Source: an uncultured Fimbriimonadales bacterium
GTDB taxonomy: Bacteria; Armatimonadota; Fimbriimonadia; Fimbriimonadales; GBS-DC
Assembly (NCBI GenBank): GCA_937992175.1
Contig: CALKLF010000030.1
Coordinates: 1,367 to 65,366, forward strand
Direction: 5' to 3'
DNA length: 64,000 nt
Position numbers and translations under genes: made by a program. The first letter of the stretch is position 1, and each line of letters begins with the position of its first letter. Shown here one piece after another: positions 1,227 to 54,431 of this stretch. A model generated the notes under the pieces. It ran no database searches and was not told the DNA's origin. It was given only the letters and a program-made list of their open reading frames with translations.

Positions 1227-1377
1227 ATCAGTAGCTATGGCTTAAGCGACGGTGGAAGCATACCTGCGCTTTTTTGCCCCACCGCCCTTCCCGCAAGGCA
1301 GGAGGGGAGGTGAGGACAAACGCAATCGAAGCGGTTTCTCGCTATGCATCCGCTGTATTTCGCATTGGAAACATATG

Positions 1378-1848
1378 TCAGTGTTTCACAAACTCTGGCT
1401 TCTCATCTTTGAGCGACTTGATGTAGGCGATCAGCTGCTTAATTTGCTCCTCCTTCAAGTAGCTATACGGCGGCATCGAAGGCGGGTAGCCCGCCACGAG
1501 CTGCTTATTCGGATTCACGATCGACTCACGCAGGTACTCCTCGTCCGCTGTCACGGTAGAGCCGTCCTTGAGTTTCACCTGAGAGCCGTACAGCCCACGC
1601 AAATCGGGATAGTCCTTGCCGACTGTCGGACTCATATGGCAGGCGTTGCAGCCTGTTTGCATAAACACCAACTTGCCTTTCGCCGCTTCGGGGTCAACGG
1701 CTTTCGCAGGGGTCGCCGTGCTGGTAGGCTTAGTCTCTGCCGTCCCGTTGGGAGAGGGCGCGCTCTGATTGGCACAGCCCACAAAAAGCGCCGCAATCGT
1801 CATCAGTGAAACGCCGTAGCCCATCCATCGTAGCCATCGCATCGTCAT
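1378..1848 (-). CDS. c-type cytochrome (lipoprotein-like signal)
   Basis: CNACH heme-binding motif (CxxCH). Signal with a LFVGC lipobox-like site. AAGGAGG lies 6 nt upstream of the ATG on the minus strand. Confidence 0.8.
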   Translation of the reverse strand: MTMRWLRWMGYGVSLMTIAALFVGCANQSAPSPNGTAETKPTSTATPAKAVDPEAAKGKLVFMQTGCNACHMSPTVGKDYPDLRGLYGSQVKLKDGSTVTADEEYLRESIVNPNKQLVAGYPPSMPPYSYLKEEQIKQLIAYIKSLKDEKPEFVKH

Positions 1849-1907
1849 AGTGCGCCTCCTTGTCGACTCATTAGACCATATTGGTTAACTGACCAATTTA
1901 TACCCGA

Positions 1908-1936
1908 TTGGACGCCGTTTTGTCAAGGGGTATAAT
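1908..1936 (+). promoter_or_regulatory. sigma70-like promoter of folK (near-leaderless)
   Basis: TTGGAC 1908-1913, 17-nt spacer, TATAAT 1931-1936. The ATG is at 1946, only 9 nt after the -10 box, and there is no SD. Confidence 0.6.
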
Positions 1937-1945
1937 CCCTCACGC

Positions 1946-2461
1946 ATGGCGGCGAAGGTCTATCTCAGTCTCGGTTCGAATCTGGGCGACCGTCTGGCGA
2001 ATCTGCAGGACGGCGTGCGCCGTCTGCGGGCGCATGGGGTGTTCCCGTTTCAGGTTTCGCGGGTGTACGAGACGGTTCCCGTTGGCGAGACCCCCGACCC
2101 GCGCCTGTACCTGAATCTGGGCGTGTGGGCGGAGACGGAACTCGCACCGCATGCTTTACTGGACGCCGTGAAAGCCGTTGAAGCGGAGCTGGGACGCACT
2201 TTCACGGAAGGACGCTGGATGCCCCGCCCGCTGGATATCGATATTATCCTGTACGACAACCTGACGCTGGCGACGCCGACGCTGACAATCCCCCATCCGC
2301 GCATGCGCGAGCGGGCGTTCGTGCTGATTCCCTTCTCGGAGATGGCGCCCGACTATGTTTTGCCCGATGGGACACCGTTGCAGGAGTTGCTGCACGACCC
2401 GCGTATTCAAAGTCAGGAGGTGCGGGTGTACGATGCCGATTTATCGTTATCAAGCCGTTGA
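1946..2461 (+). CDS. folK: 2-amino-4-hydroxy-6-hydroxymethyldihydropteridine diphosphokinase (HPPK)
   Basis: YLSLGSNLGDR N-terminus and PHPRMRERAFVLIP motif, both typical of FolK. Confidence 0.9.
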   Translation: MAAKVYLSLGSNLGDRLANLQDGVRRLRAHGVFPFQVSRVYETVPVGETPDPRLYLNLGVWAETELAPHALLDAVKAVEAELGRTFTEGRWMPRPLDIDIILYDNLTLATPTLTIPHPRMRERAFVLIPFSEMAPDYVLPDGTPLQELLHDPRIQSQEVRVYDADLSLSSR

Positions 2462-3712: not shown

Positions 3713-6280
3713 ATGCGAGTAACGGCGAAAGGGCTTCTGGGCTTGCTGATTTTGACGACACTGGGTTTTGCTTCGGCGCAGCAAAGGGTGGATTTTCGAT
3801 TCCACGACTCGGTTTCAGGACGCGCGCTTCCTGTGGAACTGACGCTCATTGACCAGGCAACGGGGCAGACCTATGGTTTTCGCGCGATGCTCGACGGGCG
3901 TTTGCAGGCGTTCCTGCCCGAGGGCGAGTACCTGCTCCATGCGCTCCACGAGGGATATCAGGCGGTCGCCGTCACGCTGGTCGTCCATGACGCTACGCCT
4001 CCGCATCGGTTTTATCTGGATCCCCTTTCGCCGCCTGTAGAGACCGACTGGCGATACCTGTGGGCGCAGCGCAAGCCGAACCAGATGATTGTGGTGGGCT
4101 TCATCACAGACGAGCAGACGGGGCAGCCGCTGGAGGGCGTGCGCGTGCGCGCGCTGAACCACGCAGGTGAAGCGTATACCGACGGGCGCGGACTGTTCTA
4201 TCTGCAGTTCCCCATCTACGACTTACAGGGCAAGGCGCAGCCCTACGCCACACTTGCGCTGGAGAAAGCGGGCTATCGGACGCTGCTGCTGGAGCAGGTA
4301 CAGCTCTGGAGCGAAGGCGACTGGATTTACAGGCTCACGATGCAGGCAGGAGCCAGCGTCGACGCGCGCGACATGCGTTCGCCTCGCCATCGTGAGAGCG
4401 AGCCGACTCAGCCGTGTGAGGAGTGTGGAAAACAGCCCTCACCTCCTGACCCCCTCTCCCACGGCGTGGGAGAGGGGGAGCCAAACGCCCCCTCTCCCAC
4501 GCCGTGGGAGAGGGGGTCGGGGGGTGAGGGCAATAGCGACTTCTTCCCCGCCGCGCCCGCGCCGATTGTGCTGCCCAAATATATCAAAGTTGGGCGCAAC
4601 TGCACCTCGCGCACCAACTGCCCCGGCGGCGTGGAGGTCTACACGCTCGATACCTACTGCAAGGGCGTGATTACCAGCGAATGGTACGCCTGCTGGGGGA
4701 ATGTACGCTACGGCAGTGAAAGCCCGCCCGCGGGGATGGAGTCGGTCAAGGCGGGCGCGGTCGCCGTGCGCAGCTATGCCGTCTCGTTCGTGTACAGCCC
4801 CATCAATAGCAGCTACGACATCTGCGACTCTACGGCGTGTCAGGTGTTCACAGGCAACCAGTCTTCCAACGGCAACGCGGCGGTGGACGCCACCCCGCGC
4901 TATGTGCTGCTTACAAGCTCAGGCAACATTGCCCGTGCAGAATACTCGGCGGAGAACAACAACGCGGGCTGCGGCGACGGCTTTTCGGGCACGGGCGGCA
5001 GCTGGCCCTGCATTGCCGACCCTGTCTGCACGGGATTCGCTTTCAACGGACACGGGCGGGGGCTATGTCAGTGGGGCTCCGCACGCTGGGCGACGGGCAG
5101 GCGACTTTCCAGCAGTCAGGCGTGTACCAGCAGCGCACCTCTCCACGGCTACGGAACCAAGAACTGGCAACAGATTCTGAGCCATTACTACGCGCCAGGG
5201 GGCTATCAGCTTGTGCAGGGCGGCGTTGCGACGATTCAGAGCCTTACTGTCAGTCCGAACCCTGTGCGCACAGGCGCTCAGGCGACGCTGGGCTTCACGA
5301 TTAGCGCAAGCCACGATTTTCCGGTGATGCTGGGTGCGTCGATACGGCTTGGCACAGGCAACTGGATTTCCGATGCGCCGCGCGACCTCAAAGTGAGCCT
5401 CGTCGAGGGCACGAACAACCGCTCGCGCTTCTTCCTCGTGCCCAGCGACGCCGTTGCAGGAACCTACGATGTGCTGACCGCGCTTTGGTTCGACCGCAAC
5501 AACAGCAACACGATTAACACAGGCGACTTCATGGTGGACGACCGCCTGTTCGCGGGGGCGATGCAGGTGCGCCGTGCGACCTCGATTAGCGTTCCGCTCG
5601 CCAGTGGGCGGCGCGGGCAGACGATTACCTTACAGGCGACGCTGCGCCAGACACTGGACAACGCTCCCCTCAGCGGGCGCACGCTCACTTTCAAGGTGAA
5701 CGACGCCGTCGTGGGCACAGCCGTCACCAACAGCGCAGGCGCGGCGACAATAAACTACACGATTCCGCTCAGCATGCCTACCGGACATCAGACCCTCCGC
5801 GTGGAGTTTGGCGGCGACGGTACTTACGCCGCCTCGTTTTCCACCAACACGCTCACCGTTGCGCCTGTTCGGGTACAGGGGCAGATTGCGTTGCAAGGCT
5901 TATCGAACCCGCAGGGTACGCCCGTGCGCTTCGTGTTGCAGGCGGGCAGTCAGCAACAGACCATCGACCTGAACCTGGGCGCGAACGGCGGTTATGCGTT
6001 CGACACTGCGCTCACCGGCGCGGCGACTGTGCGCGTCAGCACGCCCAACGGCGTCTGGCTCTGCAGCCAGCGCGACGCGATGCTCAGCAACCTCGTGACA
6101 CTCGACTTCCCGTTGACGGCGGGCGACCTGAATCAGGATGGGGTCATCGACGACGCTGATTTGCTGATGGTGCTGTTCGCGTTCGGCTCCAGCGACCCGC
6201 AAGCCGATGTGAACCGCGATGGCGTCGTGGACGATGCGGATCTGCTAATGATACTGTTCGCGTTCGGGCAGGGTTGCTGA
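3713..6280 (+). CDS. secreted SpoIID/LytB-domain protein with Ig-like repeats and C-terminal dockerin-like double repeat
   Basis: Signal peptide MRVTAKGLLGLLILTTLGFASAQQ. SpoIID-like block VKAGAVAVRSYA...YDICDSTACQVFTG. C-terminus DLNQDGVIDDADLLMVLFAFG...DVNRDGVVDDADLLMILFAFGQGC. Extended -10 TGgTATACT at 3698-3706, 6 nt before the ATG. Confidence 0.8.
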   Translation: MRVTAKGLLGLLILTTLGFASAQQRVDFRFHDSVSGRALPVELTLIDQATGQTYGFRAMLDGRLQAFLPEGEYLLHALHEGYQAVAVTLVVHDATPPHRFYLDPLSPPVETDWRYLWAQRKPNQMIVVGFITDEQTGQPLEGVRVRALNHAGEAYTDGRGLFYLQFPIYDLQGKAQPYATLALEKAGYRTLLLEQVQLWSEGDWIYRLTMQAGASVDARDMRSPRHRESEPTQPCEECGKQPSPPDPLSHGVGEGEPNAPSPTPWERGSGGEGNSDFFPAAPAPIVLPKYIKVGRNCTSRTNCPGGVEVYTLDTYCKGVITSEWYACWGNVRYGSESPPAGMESVKAGAVAVRSYAVSFVYSPINSSYDICDSTACQVFTGNQSSNGNAAVDATPRYVLLTSSGNIARAEYSAENNNAGCGDGFSGTGGSWPCIADPVCTGFAFNGHGRGLCQWGSARWATGRRLSSSQACTSSAPLHGYGTKNWQQILSHYYAPGGYQLVQGGVATIQSLTVSPNPVRTGAQATLGFTISASHDFPVMLGASIRLGTGNWISDAPRDLKVSLVEGTNNRSRFFLVPSDAVAGTYDVLTALWFDRNNSNTINTGDFMVDDRLFAGAMQVRRATSISVPLASGRRGQTITLQATLRQTLDNAPLSGRTLTFKVNDAVVGTAVTNSAGAATINYTIPLSMPTGHQTLRVEFGGDGTYAASFSTNTLTVAPVRVQGQIALQGLSNPQGTPVRFVLQAGSQQQTIDLNLGANGGYAFDTALTGAATVRVSTPNGVWLCSQRDAMLSNLVTLDFPLTAGDLNQDGVIDDADLLMVLFAFGSSDPQADVNRDGVVDDADLLMILFAFGQGC
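4435..4531. repeat. double GC-rich hairpin element (CCCTCTCCC...GGGAGAGGG family) embedded in frame in the CDS
   Basis: Two 12-bp-stem hairpins (ccccctctccca-cggcg-tgggagaggggg and its mirror) are flanked by the outer inverted repeat gccctcacc / ggtgagggc. Both strands translate to PLSHGVGEG / SPTPWERG. Confidence 0.85.
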
Positions 6281-6289
6281 ACAGGAGAT

Positions 6290-6418
6290 TCGGCGTCCCG
6301 CCGACGATTATAAGTCCTTCCCACGAAAAATGCTGCGGAAATGCAGGAGGGAAACGGCTGAGATTCCTCGCTTCGCTCGGAATGACAACCGTTGTCATTC
6401 CGGCGAAGCGAGATTCCT
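6290..6418. repeat. composite intergenic repeat (tcggcg-tcc-cgccga hairpin, 'aagtccttccc' module and 'SLGMT' inverted repeat)
   Basis: The 18-mer tcggcgtcccgccgacga recurs inverted at 28325-28344. gagattcctcgcttcgctcggaatgacaa...ttgtcattccg.gcgaagcgagattcc is an inverted repeat shared with 26774-26857, 33567-33773 and 34908-35020. Confidence 0.85.
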
Positions 6419-6648
6419 GTCTACGAGGTTGTTATCCCCGTCGCTCGCCCCGAAGATTTGCTAATAATGAAGTCAATCGTTCAACGCTCGATAGACCTCG
6501 TCGATATCCACTCAGATTGACCTGCAGCATGTGCGCTACTGGGTGGAGCAATTCGCAGAGGCGTTAGAGGAGCCTGATTTGTGGGCGAAAGTAGAGCCAT
6601 TGCTGTAGAAGGAATAATACCAATTGGGGTTTCAAATGTCGCATAGCT

Positions 6649-39733: not shown

Positions 39734-39901
39734 AAGCCTCCTTTCGTTGGTGTGCGAGGGTAAACTCGCCAAATATCATTATACCCCCAGTCTGCTATCG
39801 AATCTGAGAGCGTGTATGTGAAGTGTTGCTTGAAGTTTTCACGAGCTGCGAACCTATCGCGTGAACTCTTGATGGCTGAAGCCGTTCCTGAGCACACGAA
39901 G

Positions 39902-40102
39902 CCCGCCTTCGCGGGGTATAGCCGACGCAGGTCGGCTTTGTGTGCATACGAACAGCTTACGGATTTTGTATCAATAACCGTCCAGTGTGCCCAAGCGAAT
40001 GAATTCGCCCCCACCCACTCGAAAAACCCGCCTACGCGGGTTTTGAGAACCCCGCGCAGGCGGGGTTTCTCGATTGGATGGGCGCGAATTCATTCGCTTG
40101 AG
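39902..40102. repeat. cluster of four short tetraloop hairpins plus a ~20-bp inverted repeat
   Basis: Four hairpins: cccgc-cttc-gcggg (39902-39915), agccgac-gcag-gtcggct (39920-39937), aaaacccgc-ctac-gcgggtttt (40023-40044) and aaccccgc-gcag-gcggggtt (40048-40067). The last two are enclosed by ccaagcgaatgaattcgccc (39991-40010) / gggcgcgaattcattcgcttg (40080-40100). Confidence 0.75.
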
Positions 40103-47848: not shown

Positions 47849-47922
47849 AGCCGCTGCCCTCTCGCCCGTCGGTTCTGAAGTTTCAGTAGGTAGGGGAAGA
47901 ATCCTGCCGATAATCGGGGTAC

Positions 47923-48807
47923 TTACTTTCCGGTCGCCTCGGCGTTGACCGCTTTGAGCATGAAGTTCACCAGCAGGGTGTAAAACTCTTCGGGGCGTTC
48001 GTAGCGCGCCTGCACATGCTCGCAGCCGTCCGCCCACCAGAGCTGCTTGGGTTCCCGCGCCGCCTGGAACAGGCGTTCGGCATGGTAGGGAGGGATGAGC
48101 TGGTCTTTCGTGCCGTGCATCAGCAGCACGGGGCGCGGCGCGATATGCCCGATGATATCTTCAGGGGCGACTTTCGTGGGCGAGCGGCGCGTGTAGAGCC
48201 TGCCAATCCACAGCGTGGGGTGGAGCAGCACTGACGCCTTGCCGACGGCGTTGCGCCACCAGTCCTTGACGGCGTGGCTCAGGCGCGCGTAGGCGGAGTC
48301 GGCGATGACGGCGCGGATACGCTCATCTTCCGCCGCTGCCAGCAGGCTCGCCGCGCCGCCCATCGATGCGCCATACACCACCACCGGCAAACCAGGCGCG
48401 ATACGGCATGCGAAATCGACCGCCGAAAGCACATCGAGCCGCTCCTTGTCGCCAATCGTGCAAAGGTCGCCCTCGCTCTTGCCCATCGCGCGGAAGTCGA
48501 ACACCAGGCAGTGGAAGCCCGCGTGCCACAGCTCCTTCGCCACAGGCAACGGCTCGCAGCGGTTCATCAGGTAGCCGTGACACAGAATCGCAATCCCGAC
48601 GGGCTTGGGGTTGGGAATCCACCAGCCGAAGAGCCGTATCCCGTCGCGCGAGGGGAACGCCACATTCTGATAAGGCAGCCCCATATCGCGCGGGGTCATA
48701 AAAAACGGCGTGCGGGGTGGACGCAAAGTCGCCCGTGTCGCGACATAGTTCGCGAGCAACAGCAGTCCAAAGACAATCACGACGGCGACAACGATGGCAG
48801 GCAACAT
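47923..48807 (-). CDS. alpha/beta hydrolase with N-terminal TM segment
   Basis: ILCHGY and GASMGG (GxSxG). TATACT on the minus strand at 48823..48818, 10 nt upstream of ATG 48807. Confidence 0.82.
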   Translation of the reverse strand: MLPAIVVAVVIVFGLLLLANYVATRATLRPPRTPFFMTPRDMGLPYQNVAFPSRDGIRLFGWWIPNPKPVGIAILCHGYLMNRCEPLPVAKELWHAGFHCLVFDFRAMGKSEGDLCTIGDKERLDVLSAVDFACRIAPGLPVVVYGASMGGAASLLAAAEDERIRAVIADSAYARLSHAVKDWWRNAVGKASVLLHPTLWIGRLYTRRSPTKVAPEDIIGHIAPRPVLLMHGTKDQLIPPYHAERLFQAAREPKQLWWADGCEHVQARYERPEEFYTLLVNFMLKAVNAEATGK

Positions 48808-49022
48808 GACGGTTAAGAGTATACTTCATTTGGGGCGCTGTTCAAATCGGAAATCATCTGCACAACCGTTTGCTCCAGTAGAGGGAGGTCTCACACAATG
48901 GTATCGTAGACCTGCCTCTTTCATATCTGCCGAATTCGTCGGACTCCAGCCCGATGAATTGAATCAGCTGTACCTCAGGACGACTTATTCCTCACAGTCT
49001 CACTGATGCGGGTTTTCAGGAG

Positions 49023-50897
49023 CTACGTTTGTTTCGGGTTCTTCGACCACATTTTCTTGAGTTCCTCGACCACATCTTCAAGCAACCTTACCTGCACAGG
49101 TACAGGAAAAGGCTGATAAGGCTCCATATACACATAGGATAATCCGACTACAGGTTCGTTGAGGATAAAGTCAGAGATCGGCTCTGCAAAAGCAACCTTT
49201 GCTTTTTTCAGCACTTTTGCATCGTCTTCGCTACTGACATGCTTAACGAGGAAGTTCTCGGTCTGGGCGAGGATATCCATCGGTATCCCACTGGGAGACT
49301 GTGTGGAATAGAGCATGCCAATCCCATATTTTCGCCCTTCCTTGGCGATTCTGTAGAAAACGCTGCTTGGTTCCGCAAGTAGGTTGTGCGCTTCCTCGAT
49401 GACCACCAGAACGTCGGTTTTTCGCTGTTGGGAGTCGTTGCCTATCCCTCGCGTATATCGTTGAAGCGCCTCGTTGAAGAGACGGGCTGCCAGCCTTGAG
49501 CTGATAAACTCCACTTGTTCTGGGCGCACTGTGGGTAGGTCGACTATGACAACTTTCCCCGAGATAGCTTCGCGTATAGCGCTGGATAAGAAATCCCCTA
49601 TAACGACGCTGTCTGTATGTAAATCTCGCAAGAAAGAGAGCCTTTTGGCATACTGATATAGCTCACGAGCACTATTACGCTTTTCGTCGCCGCTATCCTC
49701 GCTATTGTCGTCCGTACCATCCTCGCTATCTTGTGTCTTTGAGGTTTTCTTAGCCCTACTGAAGGCTGTCCTCAAGTCGACATCGTTATTATAAAAGTCA
49801 CCATCACGAGCCTCAAATTCTGCTTTTCCATAGCGGATTTTCATCTCCTTCGGAGGACTCAACCCTGCTTCTAAAAGCGCCCCATAAACATACGCCATCT
49901 TATTAGGGATTCTAATCCAGTCACCGTTTTCTGGATCAACCCCTGACCTTGCCGCCTCCAAATATTGCGGCGGGCGTCCCCCTTGAAACAACTCGCGCTG
50001 ATACGCGAGTTCTATAGCCAAATACGGCTCTCTGAAAAAGTTTATTTTTATCGGCTTTACCTCGTAGATGTCACCACTAGACGATCCATCCTCTACTTGC
50101 CGGTTGGTAAACCACACGATTTGCTTCTGTATTCCCAGCTTCTCGAACGCCTGTATCAAGCCCATCGCAGTACTTTCGGTAGTCTGCGTGGCATATTCGC
50201 CGTTCAAATCAAATATCAACATTCCCATGTGTGGGAAGTAGTATTTGAGAAGCACCAAAATCACCTTGTTCTCATTGCTCTTGCCAAAACCTGTTTTCCC
50301 AAAGTTTGCCGTGCGCCGACCATGAAAGTTAGCGACATCGATCATCTTTTTAACATCTATGAGTTTTCCATCCTCTGCGCTCCCCAAGCGTAGGTAACCG
50401 AAGTTCACATACGGATGTTGCTCGTGGGAAGAGGCAGCGGGCTGGAGGCTAACGTTTATTAGTCCTTGAAGTTCTTCGTTGGTCAAAGAAGAAACGCTCA
50501 CATCCAAAAGTGAGGGAACCTTGCGGGTTGAGGGGTAGAAGGAAATCGCCCCTACGCCTGCCCCGTTTTCTGGCTTCTGATACCTACCAAGTATCAAAAT
50601 TTCGTAGTGAAGGAAGTTGATGCTCTTTGCTGTATGCTCGTCCAGCTGTGCTTGATTGAGATTCCTTAGTGCCAGTGCTTCAGCGTAATCGCTGTAGGTA
50701 ATTGGACGGTATACTGAGTTCGTTACCATTCCGAGATACTCGGCACGATTGTCGTAGTAGGTGCCTGTACGCACCTTAACGAACTGACCGAGCTGTAGCG
50801 CACTTGTCTTGAGCTCACGATAATCCAACACAAGCACAATGTAGGTCTTGCCGCCTTTTGTATAGATGTCAGTCACGAAGCCAATTCGGTTTTCCAT
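49023..50897 (-). CDS. HerA/DUF87-like ring ATPase
   Basis: Walker A FGKTGFGKSN and Walker B DVLVVIEEAHNLL. YGIGMLYSTQSPSGIPMDILAQTENFLVKHV (HerA-like C-terminal block). N-terminal barrel-like segment. ATG 50897 has GGAGG 5 nt upstream (GTG 50909 is an alternative start). Confidence 0.8.
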   Translation of the reverse strand: MENRIGFVTDIYTKGGKTYIVLVLDYRELKTSALQLGQFVKVRTGTYYDNRAEYLGMVTNSVYRPITYSDYAEALALRNLNQAQLDEHTAKSINFLHYEILILGRYQKPENGAGVGAISFYPSTRKVPSLLDVSVSSLTNEELQGLINVSLQPAASSHEQHPYVNFGYLRLGSAEDGKLIDVKKMIDVANFHGRRTANFGKTGFGKSNENKVILVLLKYYFPHMGMLIFDLNGEYATQTTESTAMGLIQAFEKLGIQKQIVWFTNRQVEDGSSSGDIYEVKPIKINFFREPYLAIELAYQRELFQGGRPPQYLEAARSGVDPENGDWIRIPNKMAYVYGALLEAGLSPPKEMKIRYGKAEFEARDGDFYNNDVDLRTAFSRAKKTSKTQDSEDGTDDNSEDSGDEKRNSARELYQYAKRLSFLRDLHTDSVVIGDFLSSAIREAISGKVVIVDLPTVRPEQVEFISSRLAARLFNEALQRYTRGIGNDSQQRKTDVLVVIEEAHNLLAEPSSVFYRIAKEGRKYGIGMLYSTQSPSGIPMDILAQTENFLVKHVSSEDDAKVLKKAKVAFAEPISDFILNEPVVGLSYVYMEPYQPFPVPVQVRLLEDVVEELKKMWSKNPKQT

Positions 50898-50899
50898 AA

Positions 50900-52042
50900 C
50901 TACCTCCACATCTGAGGAATTCGCAATCCTGTATTTTGCTGAATCTGGTTTCGAAGTTCATTTTCTACGACGCGCACCAAATTGCTATCAATCGAGGCGC
51001 GTTCGTGTGCTTCGGAAACTGTCGCGATGGAGCCGCCATATAACACTGATCTATGATTATATAGAGTGCTAATTATATCTTCTATCTGTTGTTTGTCGTC
51101 GGCGAAGTACCAGGGGATATCAAAGGTGATTACGCTTTGGAGAGGAGAAAAGGTCTCAGGGAAAAATTTGCCCACATAGCGACGCCCAAATACAAAACTC
51201 CCATCGTAGTCTGGGTTCCACTGGCGTTCGAAGCCAAAGGTATAATCCATCAGCGCTTTCGGAACTTGAAAATAAACGGGGGTTCCACTCGCATGCTGCT
51301 CAATCCACCTCAGAATGACCATAGAGGGGACGCCCTCGCGCAGCAATTTAGTACTTTTGACAACCCCCACAATTCGGGTTTTGTGACGATCAAAGTAGTC
51401 TTTCAGTTTGTGTACGAACGAGTCCTTAACCCCATGCTGCTCGAGCCTTCCATCGCGAACAAGAACTACTTTTATACCTGCGTCCCTATACCGTTTTGCC
51501 AAGGTTACGATATACGCCCATTCCAGAACGCTGCGCACTATATTTGTAAAGCTTTCAAGGTCCTTGTAGATGTGTTCTCCTAAATCGTCTGCCTGAATAC
51601 CTGTTTCGTCCGAGAACTCGGTAAGGGGAGATTCAGAAAACAACTTCTGGATGTAGGTGCGACGCTTCCCTTGCAGTGATGCACTAGCGCTTCCATTATG
51701 TGCTTTTAGTATATCAAACAGTTCGTAGTTTTTGATTACCTTCACTACAGGCTCTGGCTGCTTTTCTAGATCGCTGCTAAACGCGGAGACTCTAATCATG
51801 CCAAGGCTGATCTCGCGAAACTGGGGAAACAATAACGAGCTTCCTCCATCTACGGCGATAGTAACCAGGCGACAGCTCGACGAGGCAGGCGTAATGCACC
51901 GCACTGCGGATTTGTCCAGACAATCACTCAACCGTTCAATCTGTTGCTGAACCTCTTTCAGCAACTTGTAGTCATCCTCAGTAACCTGCTCCAAGAAGTC
52001 AGAGACCCCCAAAGGGTTATTCATTTGACCTGTGTAGGGCAT
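50900..52042 (-). CDS. NurA-like nuclease
   Basis: Ordered motifs TIAVDGGS, LEWAY, VLVRDGRL, VGVVKSTKL and VSEAHERA match my recollection of the NurA D..E..DG.L..G(V/I)sK(S/T)..H pattern. Gene order is directly 5' of the HerA-like gene. Confidence 0.65.
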   Translation of the reverse strand: MPYTGQMNNPLGVSDFLEQVTEDDYKLLKEVQQQIERLSDCLDKSAVRCITPASSSCRLVTIAVDGGSSLLFPQFREISLGMIRVSAFSSDLEKQPEPVVKVIKNYELFDILKAHNGSASASLQGKRRTYIQKLFSESPLTEFSDETGIQADDLGEHIYKDLESFTNIVRSVLEWAYIVTLAKRYRDAGIKVVLVRDGRLEQHGVKDSFVHKLKDYFDRHKTRIVGVVKSTKLLREGVPSMVILRWIEQHASGTPVYFQVPKALMDYTFGFERQWNPDYDGSFVFGRRYVGKFFPETFSPLQSVITFDIPWYFADDKQQIEDIISTLYNHRSVLYGGSIATVSEAHERASIDSNLVRVVENELRNQIQQNTGLRIPQMWR

Positions 52043-53087
52043 CGTCCTCTCCGTCGTAAGAGTCTGAATAGCGTGGGTCTTCCCACAGCTGGACGACTGA
52101 ATTATACCCGATTTCTGACAGTATCGGCTGTTGGATCTTTCGCTCGACTTCGCGGAGGCGTTGCAGGATGGTCGCTCGCGCGCTGAGAGTAAGACGTCCT
52201 AACTGCCCATTCGGTTTGCGTACCCTGTTTTCAGGCGTGCGAGCAAATTCTACCAGCCAATTTCGGAACTCTAACAGGGGTTTCCAGTGCGCCTCTTCTT
52301 GCACAATCCTTTGCATCGTTCGGTCTTGCGACACGACGGAACATGTCCAGCATCCAAAGCGCGTCTCACGCCCTTTATACACAGAGAGCAATCCCCGTGT
52401 AGGATAGCCCCACGAGGGCGCAACGAAGCTCAGAAAATCCCACACATCACATTCGCGCCATACAATAATTGGAGAAAAGTATCCGATTTTGAGGCGCTGG
52501 CTCTGTGCATACCAGACGCCCTGACCGCACTCGCCGCCTCGTGAACAGGAAAGCTTTAGCCGAGCGTCTCGCACATCGGACTCGCCGAAGCGTATGCCAG
52601 TCACGACCAGTGTACGCTCACGTTCTTCAAGGGGAAGCGTACCCAAGTAGGCTTCAACGGGCTTGATTTTCAGGCGATGTGTGCACCAGCGGAAACCCTG
52701 ATGGGGTGGGGGATAGCCTTTGCCAATCACCTGCACCCAGAAGGAATCCTCAGGCGCAGGTCTTAGGACAGTCGCCTTCGCTAATCGCTGCGCGGTGATC
52801 GATTGAAGAAAAGAAAGCGCGAACTGTTGTAGCGTGGGAATTTCTATTTCAGTATCGCAATACAGAACCTCTGGGAGAATCTCGTATTTTCGAAGTACCT
52901 CAGTACAAAGCACTAACGCTGTGGTCGAGTCCTTACCCCCTGAATACATCAGAATCCAGCGATTGTAGCCTCGCCCCAACATAGCTTCAATGGCTTGCTG
53001 AGAGAGTTTTGTCATCGCGTGGAGCCTGTCACTGCCCTCAAGAGAAATGTCCGCAAACGGATTTGCCAGCGAAACATCAAGTTGCAT
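52017..53087 (-). CDS. DndC-like PP-loop ATP pyrophosphatase (PAPS-reductase family)
   Basis: ILMYSGGKDST (SGGKDS at 52943..52926), GFRWCTHRLKIKP, VVTGIRFGES, ETRFGCWTCSVVSQD, and a C-terminal LGRLTLSARATILQRLREVE segment as in DndC. Only the last 356 codons of the 650-aa ORF are used, because the upstream part is antisense to the MFS gene. Confidence 0.75.
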   Translation of the reverse strand: MQLDVSLANPFADISLEGSDRLHAMTKLSQQAIEAMLGRGYNRWILMYSGGKDSTTALVLCTEVLRKYEILPEVLYCDTEIEIPTLQQFALSFLQSITAQRLAKATVLRPAPEDSFWVQVIGKGYPPPHQGFRWCTHRLKIKPVEAYLGTLPLEERERTLVVTGIRFGESDVRDARLKLSCSRGGECGQGVWYAQSQRLKIGYFSPIIVWRECDVWDFLSFVAPSWGYPTRGLLSVYKGRETRFGCWTCSVVSQDRTMQRIVQEEAHWKPLLEFRNWLVEFARTPENRVRKPNGQLGRLTLSARATILQRLREVERKIQQPILSEIGYNSVVQLWEDPRYSDSYDGEDDALHRSNE

Positions 53088-53146
53088 AGCATAGGCATAT
53101 TCGCTGATTTTGTGATAATTCCTGCGGCACTGGCTCAGAACATCGG

Positions 53147-53152
53147 TATAAT
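53147..53152 (+). promoter_or_regulatory. -10 box (GGTATAATCCC) of the leaderless MFS gene
   Basis: TATAAT lies 7 nt upstream of GTG 53160. Same extended motif as at folK, the tricorn-like gene and the 30354 gene. Confidence 0.5.
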
Positions 53153-53159
53153 CCCTACC

Positions 53160-54431
53160 GTGACGCAGTGTCGTGTCAACTACTGGGCGATTAGCGCGTT
53201 CTGGCTGGGCGTGAGCGTCCACTGGGCGGCGTTTTTGACGATTGCCATGCAAGCGCGGGTGAACGACCTCGCGCCGCCCGACCAGCGTGGCATCTATCTG
53301 GCGTGGCTCGCGGCGGCGGGCGCGCTGATTTCCACGATTATCGAGCTGATTGCGGGACCGATTAGCGACCGCAGCACAGCGCGAATGGGCAGGCGACGCC
53401 CATTTATCCTGTGGGGCACGCTGCTGACCTTGCCGTTTATTTTGCTGTTTATGACCACGCAGAGCTTCCCGCTTCTGGTGCTGCACTTTGTGGCGATTCA
53501 ACTGTTTCTGAACTGGGCGAATGGACCCTATCAGGCGGTGATTCCCGACTATGTGCCCCCCGAACGGCACGGTTTGGCGTCGGCGTATATGGGGATGATG
53601 ACGCTGGTGGGTACACTGGCAGGGTTGGCGTTGGCGGGCGCGCTGCTGGGCGAGCCGCCGCTGATTCTGGGCGACCTGCCGCGCACGACGCGCCTGCAAA
53701 TCGTGGGCTGGACGCTGGTGGGCTTTCTGGTGGTCACGATGCTGTGGACGGTGCTGGGCATGCGCGAACCGCAGTGGCAGCCGAAGCATCCCGACGAGAA
53801 GCGATTGCGCCCTTCGCTGTTTATGAATATTTTTCTGAACGAGTTGCCCAACTTCCGCTGGGTGGTGGTCTCGCGGTTTGTTTTCAATATGGGCTTTTTC
53901 ACGGCGCTGTTCTTTTTGGAGTTTTACCTGCGAGACACGATTGGCTTGAAGGGCGCAGCGCCGCAGCATGCGTTCGGGTTTATGGCGACGGCGACGCTGA
54001 CGGGCGTGCTGGGCAACTGGCTGGCGGGCGTGCTGGCAGACCGCATGAGCAAAAAGCAGATTATTTACTACTGCATCGGGCTGATGTGCGTATGTGCGGG
54101 ACTATTCCTGAGCGCGCAGAGCCTGACGATGGTCTACCTCACGGGCACATTATTCGGCGTGGCGTGGGGCGCATACGCGGCGGTGGACTGGGCGTTAGCC
54201 AGCAACCTTGTGCCGACCTGCGAGTCGGGGCGGTATATGGCAATCTGGCACATCGCGATGACGATGCCGCAGGTGATTGCGCCGCTGATTGCGGGACCGT
54301 TAGGCGACTGGCTGAACGCTGAGTACGGCATGGGCGCAGGCTGGCGGAGGATTTTCCTGCTCGCGCCGATTTACTTCCTTGCGTCGGTGTGGCTGCTGAA
54401 GCCTGTTCAGGAGAGACCGCTTCAGAACTAA
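53160..54431 (+). CDS. MFS transporter
   Basis: A 12-TM-like hydrophobic pattern. DRSTARMGRRRPFIL loop motif (D-R-x-G-R-R) between TM2 and TM3. GTG start chosen by promoter context. Confidence 0.8.
   Translation: MTQCRVNYWAISAFWLGVSVHWAAFLTIAMQARVNDLAPPDQRGIYLAWLAAAGALISTIIELIAGPISDRSTARMGRRRPFILWGTLLTLPFILLFMTTQSFPLLVLHFVAIQLFLNWANGPYQAVIPDYVPPERHGLASAYMGMMTLVGTLAGLALAGALLGEPPLILGDLPRTTRLQIVGWTLVGFLVVTMLWTVLGMREPQWQPKHPDEKRLRPSLFMNIFLNELPNFRWVVVSRFVFNMGFFTALFFLEFYLRDTIGLKGAAPQHAFGFMATATLTGVLGNWLAGVLADRMSKKQIIYYCIGLMCVCAGLFLSAQSLTMVYLTGTLFGVAWGAYAAVDWALASNLVPTCESGRYMAIWHIAMTMPQVIAPLIAGPLGDWLNAEYGMGAGWRRIFLLAPIYFLASVWLLKPVQERPLQN

Follow-up and report, generated by a model that had tools for sequence, protein, structure and literature searches.

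Introduction

The closest described relatives of the locus analysed here are the phosphorothioate (PT)-based TdpABC and Dnd systems and several systems built on HerA-clade ATPases. TdpABC, a defence system of thermophiles, is encoded by a gene trio in which a modifier resembling DndC accompanies a NurA-like nuclease and an ATPase of HerA type, and its TdpAB component reportedly couples ATP-driven translocation to DNA degradation and is stalled by PT. Dnd systems comprise DndABCDE together with DndFGH or PbeABCD, and also make PT. In the archaeal and Deinococcus NurA–HerA pairs a ring-forming HerA-clade ATPase is combined with an RNase-H-fold NurA nuclease (PDB 2ygk and 4d2i), while a HerA-clade hexameric ATPase is likewise the scaffold of SIR2–HerA and DUF4297–HerA. 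According to a passage on the tdp system in PMC12914056, citing An et al. 2025 (Nat Chem Biol 21:1160), tdpC alone suffices for PT synthesis, the system is found in extremophiles, and GpsATC is the PT consensus in the few tdp systems studied.

Here we describe a locus in a window of 64,000 nucleotides, by which we mean the whole stretch of DNA that was analysed. Positions 49023–53087 very probably represent a complete TdpABC cassette of three genes, arranged tdpC–tdpB–tdpA, that was horizontally acquired by a Fimbriimonadales-like (Armatimonadota) bacterium and would function in PT-based restriction-modification. The basis for this reading is the gene content, the full-length homology of TdpA and TdpB, the catalytic motifs, the gene order, and the insertion event. 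The locus is a further example of the already published TdpABC (An et al. 2025) and no new kind of system.

Results

A preliminary description of the locus had singled out two proteins, of 380 and 624 aa; both reading frames were confirmed, on the minus strand, and are here designated tdpB and tdpA (Table 1). It had also proposed that the pair is translationally coupled to a DNA-modification-type enzyme, and indeed tdpB overlaps the upstream DndC-like gene, tdpC, by 26 nt (tdpC stop at 52017, tdpB ATG at 52042), while the tdpB stop at 50900 and the tdpA ATG at 50897 are 2 nt apart. The start of tdpC was set by alignment with the homologues at two related loci, L001 and L002. An alternative GTG start for tdpA at 50909 would give a protein of 628 aa; the ATG at 50897 is preceded by a GGAGG at a distance of 7 nt and agrees better with the N terminus of the solved TdpA. 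All three open reading frames are full length with intact catalytic motifs, and frameshifts and premature stops are absent. The operon contains a single DndC-like PP-loop enzyme without DndA, DndB, DndD, or DndE, and a search of the 94%-complete genome returned neither DndD nor DndE. Three full-length class-V aminotransferase genes of the cysteine desulfurase type are present in the genome and are possible sulfur donors. A scan for promoters and terminators gave none above shuffled expectation, and Rfam gave no match at the cassette.

Table 1. Window coordinates of the tdp genes, the inserted cassette, and the flanking host genes
Feature	Position	Strand	Description
tdpC	52017..53087	-	356-aa short DndC-like PP-loop (PAPS-reductase fold) enzyme, predicted DNA phosphorothioation component
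tdpB	50900..52042	-	380-aa NurA-like (RNase-H-fold) predicted nuclease; full-length TdpB homologue
tdpA	49023..50897	-	624-aa predicted HerA-clade ring ATPase/translocase; full-length TdpA homologue
Low-GC inserted cassette	48830..53150	.	4.3 kb; tdpC, tdpB, and tdpA only
Host flank: alpha/beta hydrolase gene	47923..48807	-	Downstream of the cassette, outside the system; Pfam Hydrolase_4, E 2e-20
Host flank: MFS transporter gene	53160..54431	+	Divergent from tdpC, outside the system; Pfam MFS_1, E 1.8e-43

For comparison with solved proteins we used the TdpAB cryo-EM structures (PDB 8wet and 8wfd; also 8y1k). TdpB residues 1–368 align with residues 1–353 of 8wet_G (E 2.7e-65, 38% identity), and the AF2 model of the protein (pLDDT 82.7) retrieves 8wfd_G and 8wet_G first in Foldseek, with TM scores of 0.72–0.77 (0.73/0.77 for 8wfd_G). 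The best match outside TdpB is Sulfolobus solfataricus NurA (2ygk_A; E 2e-6, TM 0.47/0.54), followed by the RNase-H-like EndoV and TM1739 (1zup). The motifs earlier listed for this protein, IAVDGGS, LEWAY, LVRDGRL, VGVVKSTKL, and SEAHERA, are all present in that order. Residues D65, E174, D197, and H346, which sit in the motifs IAVDGG, LEWAY, VRDGRL, and SEAHERAS, do not vary among 22 close and 14 distant members of the family and presumably correspond to the NurA active site. The NurA-like assignment made in the preliminary description therefore stands on the predicted fold and the invariant D/E/D/H residues, and by that modelled fold it is correct, despite a match to Pfam NurA (PF09376) that falls below the 21-bit cut-off (16.8 bits, E 0.005, model positions 2–140 of 254).

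TdpA matches 8wet_A with 49% identity (phmmer E 1.9e-134), residues 6–617 aligning with residues 3–584 of the chain. Its Walker A (GKTGFGKS, within the GKTGFGKSN first noted) and Walker B (VVIEEAH) motifs are present and invariant across the family. The protein scores 48.7 bits against DUF87 (PF01935; cut-off 23.2), and its best family matches are HerA anti-phage models, with E values down to 2e-27 in PADLOC and from 3e-19 to 6e-12 among the NCBIfam HerA models; PDB HerA 4d2i is matched at E 1.2e-13. A conjugation-type VirB4/TraB ATPase was considered and rejected, since the HerA models match far better and the NCBIfam TraB (E 0.003) and VirB4 (E 0.009) matches are only marginal. Thus, with HerA models scoring best and a NurA-related fold in its partner, the family assignments first proposed for the two proteins are both retained. 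The full-length matches of TdpA and TdpB to solved proteins, at the E values given above, also indicate that the observation is not due to chance. The acidic linker of TdpA is variable in the family alignment and unlike that of the solved chain; it contains a 24-nt tandem duplication (49681–49728), corresponding to 8 residues.

The 356-aa product of the upstream gene carries the PP-loop SGGKDS (52943–52926) and conserved cysteines at positions 61, 77, 135, 181, 187, 213, 246, and 249 (C61, C77, C135, C181, C187, C213, C246, and C249). It is the sole PAPS_reduct protein of the genome, scoring 38.4 bits against the Pfam model, which is over the cut-off. DndC models match it at E values of about 1e-50 (7e-51 for PADLOC DndC), while its score against TIGR03183 DndC, 165.7 bits over model positions 13–303 of 447, lies under the equivalog cut-off of 290.4 bits; it gave no match in the PDB. 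The sub-cut-off score and partial coverage are those of a shortened DndC relative, as expected of TdpC. Given that score and the lack of a PDB match, the designation as putative TdpC draws on the conserved linkage to tdpB and tdpA.

The cassette is foreign to the genome and was acquired horizontally, as seen both from an empty site in a genome of the same genus (G355) and from its deviant composition. In G355 the hydrolase and MFS genes are neighbours, and the sequences that align to window positions 47920–48829 and 53172–54412 are separated by just 26 nt; the hydrolase gene has 91% identity to its G355 orthologue and the MFS gene 87% at the DNA level. The foreign composition asserted in the preliminary description is equally clear: GC content is 0.47 at 50–52 kb and 0.49 across the whole cassette, compared with 0.61 for the genome, and GC3 is 0.52–0.54 in the tdp genes, compared with 0.79–0.83 in the flanking genes. 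In the reciprocal comparison, the sequences flanking the cassettes at L001, L002, and L003 map onto different contigs of the window's genome. Neither an integrase nor a tRNA, long terminal repeats, or target-site repeats were found in the cassette, and its boundaries gave only short repeat matches at chance level, with no target-site duplication and no terminal inverted repeats. A search of plasmids, phages, and viral contigs returned no relatives that might identify a vehicle. The host is probably a moderate thermophile represented by a Fimbriimonadales-like (Armatimonadota) MAG; a rough estimate of its optimal growth temperature from proteome composition, about 61 C, fits a thermophile. The preliminary description had also raised the question of a second, native herA/nurA pair; none was found in the 94%-complete assembly, where a different contig carries just a lone NurA-domain gene.

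The order PAPS_reduct, TdpB-like, DUF87 is kept in all six of the related loci examined (L001, L002, L003, L020, L022, and L025; L003 ends within tdpB at a contig end), and tdp gene order is conserved down to 33% TdpB identity. Every locus for which flanking sequence is available has a cassette GC content 0.10–0.15 below that of its host. Homologues at 65–87% identity are likewise intact, which suggests purifying selection. With TdpB as query, matches were obtained in three of the 401 genomes of the phylum, namely the window's own genome, a second cassette carrier (G331), and a genome with a weak non-Tdp match (G254; E 1e-6); neither of the two same-genus genomes was matched. Among 1.84 billion representative proteins, the family amounts to only about 14 clusters (at 50% identity) with E < 1e-30, and a profile search for distant TdpB homologues added one cluster only.

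Discussion

A predicted nuclease and ring ATPase, encoded together with a putative DNA-sulfur-modifying enzyme upstream, make the locus a copy of TdpABC, and hence a further instance of a system already known. The Walker and nuclease motifs of the described system are conserved, and a probable thermophilic host is likewise common to both. The differences are those of degree: identity to the solved chains is 49% for TdpA and 38% for TdpB, the acidic linker of TdpA is longer and has the internal 8-residue duplication, and the MAG that carries the cassette is Fimbriimonadales-like (Armatimonadota). The relationship to Dnd lies in TdpC, which is homologous to DndC and by analogy would also make PT, and extends to a weak match of the C-terminal ATPase region of TdpA with DndH/DptH (E 4e-10; PDB 7es4, E 2e-4). 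However, the cassette is without DndB, DndD, and DndE, the C-terminal third of DndC is missing from TdpC, and the restriction module is TdpAB and not DndFGH. The ATPase also resembles those of SIR2–HerA and DUF4297–HerA (PDB 8j4u/8su9, E 2.6e-14), but a NurA-like nuclease takes the place of SIR2 or DUF4297 as effector. As self and non-self would be told apart by a linked DNA modification enzyme, the arrangement follows the logic of restriction-modification.

By analogy with the published TdpABC, the most likely function of the cassette is PT-based restriction-modification, in which self DNA would be marked by TdpC and unmarked DNA degraded by TdpAB; the activities, the modification motif, and an anti-phage effect are all assigned to it provisionally, by homology. 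In this model TdpC would act as a short PP-loop ATP pyrophosphatase of the DndC type, without DndA, DndD, or DndE partners; it would adenylate the backbone phosphate of host DNA and allow a non-bridging oxygen to be replaced by sulfur at a short consensus. TdpA would form a HerA-like hexameric ring that moves along DNA at the expense of ATP, carrying with it TdpB, the NurA-like nuclease that would degrade the DNA. On self DNA, the PT sulfur may perturb the way TdpA contacts the backbone, so that translocation and cleavage stall; if PT stalls TdpAB on self DNA in this way, only unmodified invading DNA would be destroyed.

That the two proteins serve in housekeeping end resection for double-strand-break repair, as an archaeal/Deinococcus-type NurA–HerA pair, might be thought from the fact that a HerA-clade ATPase and a NurA-like fold are common to repair enzymes and from the partial matches of TdpA to NCBIfam repair-HerA models. 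Those scores, however, are far under the equivalog cut-offs (55 bits against 800 for NF040937 and 45 bits against 970 for NF040819), and Pfam NurA, too, is matched below threshold. Moreover, the pair is missing from same-genus and same-family genomes, sits in a 4.3-kb foreign insert, has no adjoining Mre11/Rad50 genes, and shares its operon with a modifier of the DndC type at every locus examined. We therefore rejected the repair role, which is extremely improbable on the equivalog scores, the foreign insert, and the modifier linkage. The preference expressed in the preliminary description for a conflict or modification role is supported, the pair being, as judged from sequence, TdpB and TdpA beside a DndC-like enzyme.

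A further possibility is that the cassette, although intact in sequence, is an inactive or silenced passenger, unexpressed or non-functional in its present host. The mismatch in codon usage and GC content between cassette and host (GC3 0.53 versus 0.80) could limit expression, and no promoter or terminator stood out above chance. Nevertheless, full-length reading frames with every catalytic motif and no frameshifts or stops, preserved overlapping start and stop codons, and intact homologues at 65–87% identity render a passenger highly improbable. A less distant alternative, but still an improbable one, retains a Tdp-like cassette and alters its chemistry or specificity, such that TdpAB would read PT at a non-GATC motif or another group installed after adenylation. 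This possibility is consistent with the identity of just 38–49% to the solved chains, with a TdpC score under the DndC equivalog cut-off, and with a variable TdpA acidic linker unlike that of the solved chain. In contrast, the PP-loop and all conserved DndC-type cysteines are retained, a partner enzyme of the same family is present at all of the loci, among them L022, where TdpB (P0030) shares 48% identity with the solved protein, and no sequence feature suggests a different chemistry. Given the moderate identity to the characterised proteins, the recognition motif may nonetheless differ.

Returning to the TdpABC reading, the locus leaves the understanding of the Tdp mechanism unchanged and extends the host range of Tdp to Armatimonadota (Fimbriimonadales) MAGs. 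The clean pair of insertion and empty site shows that this trio of genes travels as one minimal unit. It is possible, although we hold it only tentatively and think it rather doubtful, that the Fimbriimonadales Tdp lineage (at most 38% TdpB identity) recognises a different PT motif and that its bare three-gene cassette, without recombinase, tRNA target, or terminal repeats and in this genome landing exactly between two divergent promoters, spreads by an unrecognised route of movement for minimal defence cassettes. All of the homologues found are annotated as “hypothetical protein” or are nameless, and the Tdp system is unnamed in PADLOC 2.0, Pfam, and NCBIfam, so current pipelines would miss it. 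At one of the related loci, L001, the cassette lies in a defence context, with a gene for a HepT toxin and an R-M pair of HaeII type as its neighbours.

Gene Layout and Protein Identity

The ORF listing places three closely packed genes on the minus strand at 49023-53087, the tdpC stop overlapping the tdpB start by 26 nt and tdpB ending 2 nt ahead of the tdpA ATG. As the preliminary description claimed, the translated 380-aa protein carries IAVDGGS, LEWAY, LVRDGRL, VGVVKSTKL, and SEAHERA in that order, the protein that follows carries GKTGFGKSN and VVIEEAH, and the pair is coupled, through the overlap, to a DNA-modification-type enzyme, the DndC-like tdpC product. For tdpA, an alternative GTG start at 50909 would give 628 aa; the 624-aa start is favored. 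A longer ORF at tdpC (52017-53969) is a spurious frame, the start being set by alignment with homologues. The tandem duplication within tdpA (75% identity) encodes the acidic octapeptides SEDGTDDN and SEDSGDEK in a linker of family-variable length, which is shorter in the solved TdpA.

Coordinates of the features in the window
Feature	Position	Strand	Length	Remarks
Intergenic element	39871-39958		~89 nt	Long intergenic region
Hydrolase gene	47920-48829
Hydrolase-side insertion boundary	48808-48850			-10-like box TATACT
Insertion	~48830-53150		4.3 kb	Only tdpC, tdpB, and tdpA inside
tdpA	49023-50897	minus	624 aa	ATG 50897; GGAGG 7 nt upstream; N terminus agrees better with solved TdpA
Tandem duplication in tdpA	49681-49728		24-nt unit
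tdpB	50900-52042	minus	380 aa
tdpC	52017-53087	minus	356 aa	ATG 53087
MFS-side insertion boundary	53140-53162			-10-like box TATAAT; MFS start GTG 53160, 6 nt downstream
MFS gene	53172-54412

Family libraries gave only generic answers, and the decisive identification of TdpA and TdpB came from the sequences of solved structures. TdpB has no match in PADLOC or NCBIfam and scores 16.8 bits against Pfam NurA, under the 21-bit cutoff; TdpA matches DUF87 (48.7 bits) and many "HerA" defense models (down to E 2e-27); and TdpC matches DndC models at E ~1e-50, below the NCBIfam equivalog cutoff and over model positions 13-303 of 447. Against solved proteins, TdpA aligns with PDB 8wet_A at E 1.9e-134 (49% identity, residues 6-617 vs. 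3-584) and with other HerA-type chains (SIR2-HerA, Sulfolobus solfataricus HerA, and DptH) at E 1e-14 or weaker, while TdpB aligns with 8wet_G at E 2.7e-65 (38% identity, residues 1-368 vs. 1-353). An AlphaFold2 model of TdpB built from 22 homologues (pLDDT 82.7, pTM 0.83) best matches TdpB 8wfd_G (TM 0.73/0.77), followed by S. solfataricus NurA 2ygk_A (E 2e-6), EndoV-type RNase-H-fold nucleases, and then TM1739, a bacterial NurA-family protein. D65, E174, D197, and H346, all within the motifs listed, are invariant in close and distant family alignments. "NurA-like" thus holds as a description of fold, and "HerA-like" as one of clade: TraB and VirB4 models match TdpA only at E 0.003-0.009, so that assignment to VirB4/TraC fails.

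Because a PDB search matched no solved structure to TdpC, gene linkage was tested instead. The order PAPS-reductase-like gene, TdpB-like gene, DUF87 ATPase is kept in all related loci examined (L001, L002, L003, L020, L022, and L025; the contig of L003 ends within tdpB), across which TdpB identities run from 73% down to 33%. At L022, TdpB (P0030) shares 48% identity with the solved TdpB, and the PAPS-reductase-like gene there is 50% identical to tdpC of the window. In the 94%-complete assembly of the window's genome, TdpC is the sole PAPS_reduct-domain protein detected, with no CysH-type PAPS/APS reductase, DndD, or DndE found; three full-length cysteine-desulfurase-type genes are present, whose predicted products could supply sulfur. 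From these comparisons we conclude that the locus represents a complete Tdp cassette.

At L025 9179-10358 (also L026 and L027), two further genes lie behind the Tdp cassette on the same strand, one for a SAM-dependent methyltransferase of 200 aa and one for a protein of 186 aa. This arrangement, found on three contigs from two sets of sequencing runs, belongs to a Tdp lineage of lower GC whose TdpB is 55% identical, and may be an accessory module.

Insertion of the Cassette

The foreign composition proposed earlier is borne out: GC at 50-52 kb is 0.47 vs. 0.61 for the genome, and the three cassette genes have a GC3 of 0.52-0.54 vs. 0.79-0.83 for flanking genes. In a same-genus genome (G355), the counterparts of the flanking hydrolase and MFS genes lie just 26 nt apart, which marks the intervening DNA as an insertion, placed between the -10-like boxes of these divergent genes. 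Both flanking genes retain their own -10 box, while the expected -35 place is now cassette DNA. No integrase, tRNA, or convincing repeats were found at the junctions. Cassette GC is 0.10-0.15 below that of the host in each locus with flanks, and related cassettes in other Fimbriimonadales MAGs occupy different sites, one between fur and feoB. In the Fimbriimonadales MAG SKYB70, the closest named relative (L001 4078-6820), the cassette is part of a larger low-GC island and has beside it a HaeII-type R-M pair (restriction endonuclease and DNA methyltransferase) and a gene for a HepT-like toxin.

Predicted Function

TdpABC, described by An et al. in 2025, is the third known DNA phosphorothioation system: TdpC reportedly adenylates the DNA backbone, AMP then being replaced by sulfur, and a TdpA hexamer with TdpB dimers is reported to move along and degrade DNA, with translocation and cleavage inhibited by the phosphorothioate (PT) sulfur in self DNA. 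PMC12914056, citing An et al. 2025 (Nat Chem Biol 21:1160), places tdp in extremophilic bacteria, and states that tdpC by itself is enough for PT synthesis and that GpsATC is the PT consensus seen to date.

Judged from sequence, the window locus is a genuine TdpABC cassette, of a system already published in 2025 and in a new host lineage. That the pair serves housekeeping NurA-HerA end resection is scarcely credible: it sits in an insertion, is patchily distributed, has an obligatory DndC-like partner, and scores far under repair-HerA equivalog cutoffs. As predicted at the outset, the NurA/HerA-like pair, coupled to a DNA-modification enzyme, most likely has a conflict role rather than one in repair. 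The proteins are just 38-49% identical to the solved ones, which would leave room for a Tdp variant with another motif or chemistry; the sequences bear no sign of either, and we regard such a variant as improbable. A silent passenger cassette is unlikely, given that ORFs and motifs are all intact in the window and its homologues. The value of a TdpABC assignment lies in improved annotation, a broader Tdp host range, and clean evidence of insertion.

Host and Distribution

The MnmA of the window's genome (a 2.83-Mb MAG of 133 contigs) shares 90-91% identity with the MnmA proteins of an "uncultured Fimbriimonadales bacterium" MAG and of a related MAG, which marks the host as a Fimbriimonadales-like member of Armatimonadota. 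A check for a second herA/nurA pair found no further DUF87/HerA gene in this genome. A solo NurA-domain gene of native composition (C81:9464-10108; L005, ORF 1294-2448, minus strand; 384 aa) scores 24.6 bits against Pfam NurA, above the cutoff; next to it lie a rhodanese-metallo-beta-lactamase gene and a small ORF of winged-helix type, with no HerA/DUF87 neighbor.

Among 401 genomes sampled from the phylum, the search with TdpB gave matches in 3, namely the window's own, one other cassette carrier (G331), and a weak non-Tdp match (E 1e-6); neither of two same-genus genomes nor the one same-family genome gave a match. The family comprises 27 clusters at 90% identity, with 14 representatives at E < 1e-30 among 1.84 billion 50% clusters; searches of phage, plasmid, and viral-contig collections turned up no relatives. 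At L021 (G254:C151, ~3830-6611), a distant NurA-like ORF (27% identity, E 1e-6) lies beside a HerA-like ATPase that resembles TdpA in the Walker regions only (35%); the 10 kb examined holds no TdpC match, and this pair probably represents another kind of NurA/HerA-type module.

A crude index based on proteome composition (IVYWREL 0.422), converted with the growth-temperature formula of Zeldovich et al. 2007, suggests a growth optimum near 61 °C, in agreement with the association of Tdp with thermophiles. The genome strongly under-represents several 4-bp palindromes (Markov observed/expected: GGCC 0.035, ACGT 0.059, CTAG 0.15, CCGG 0.26, GATC 0.34); although GATC is the published Tdp consensus, its avoidance cannot be tied to the window's cassette. 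The intergenic element matches intergenic L001 3911-4004 at 84% identity in one orientation and at 76% in the other, which suggests a palindromic repeat common to different Fimbriimonadales genomes.
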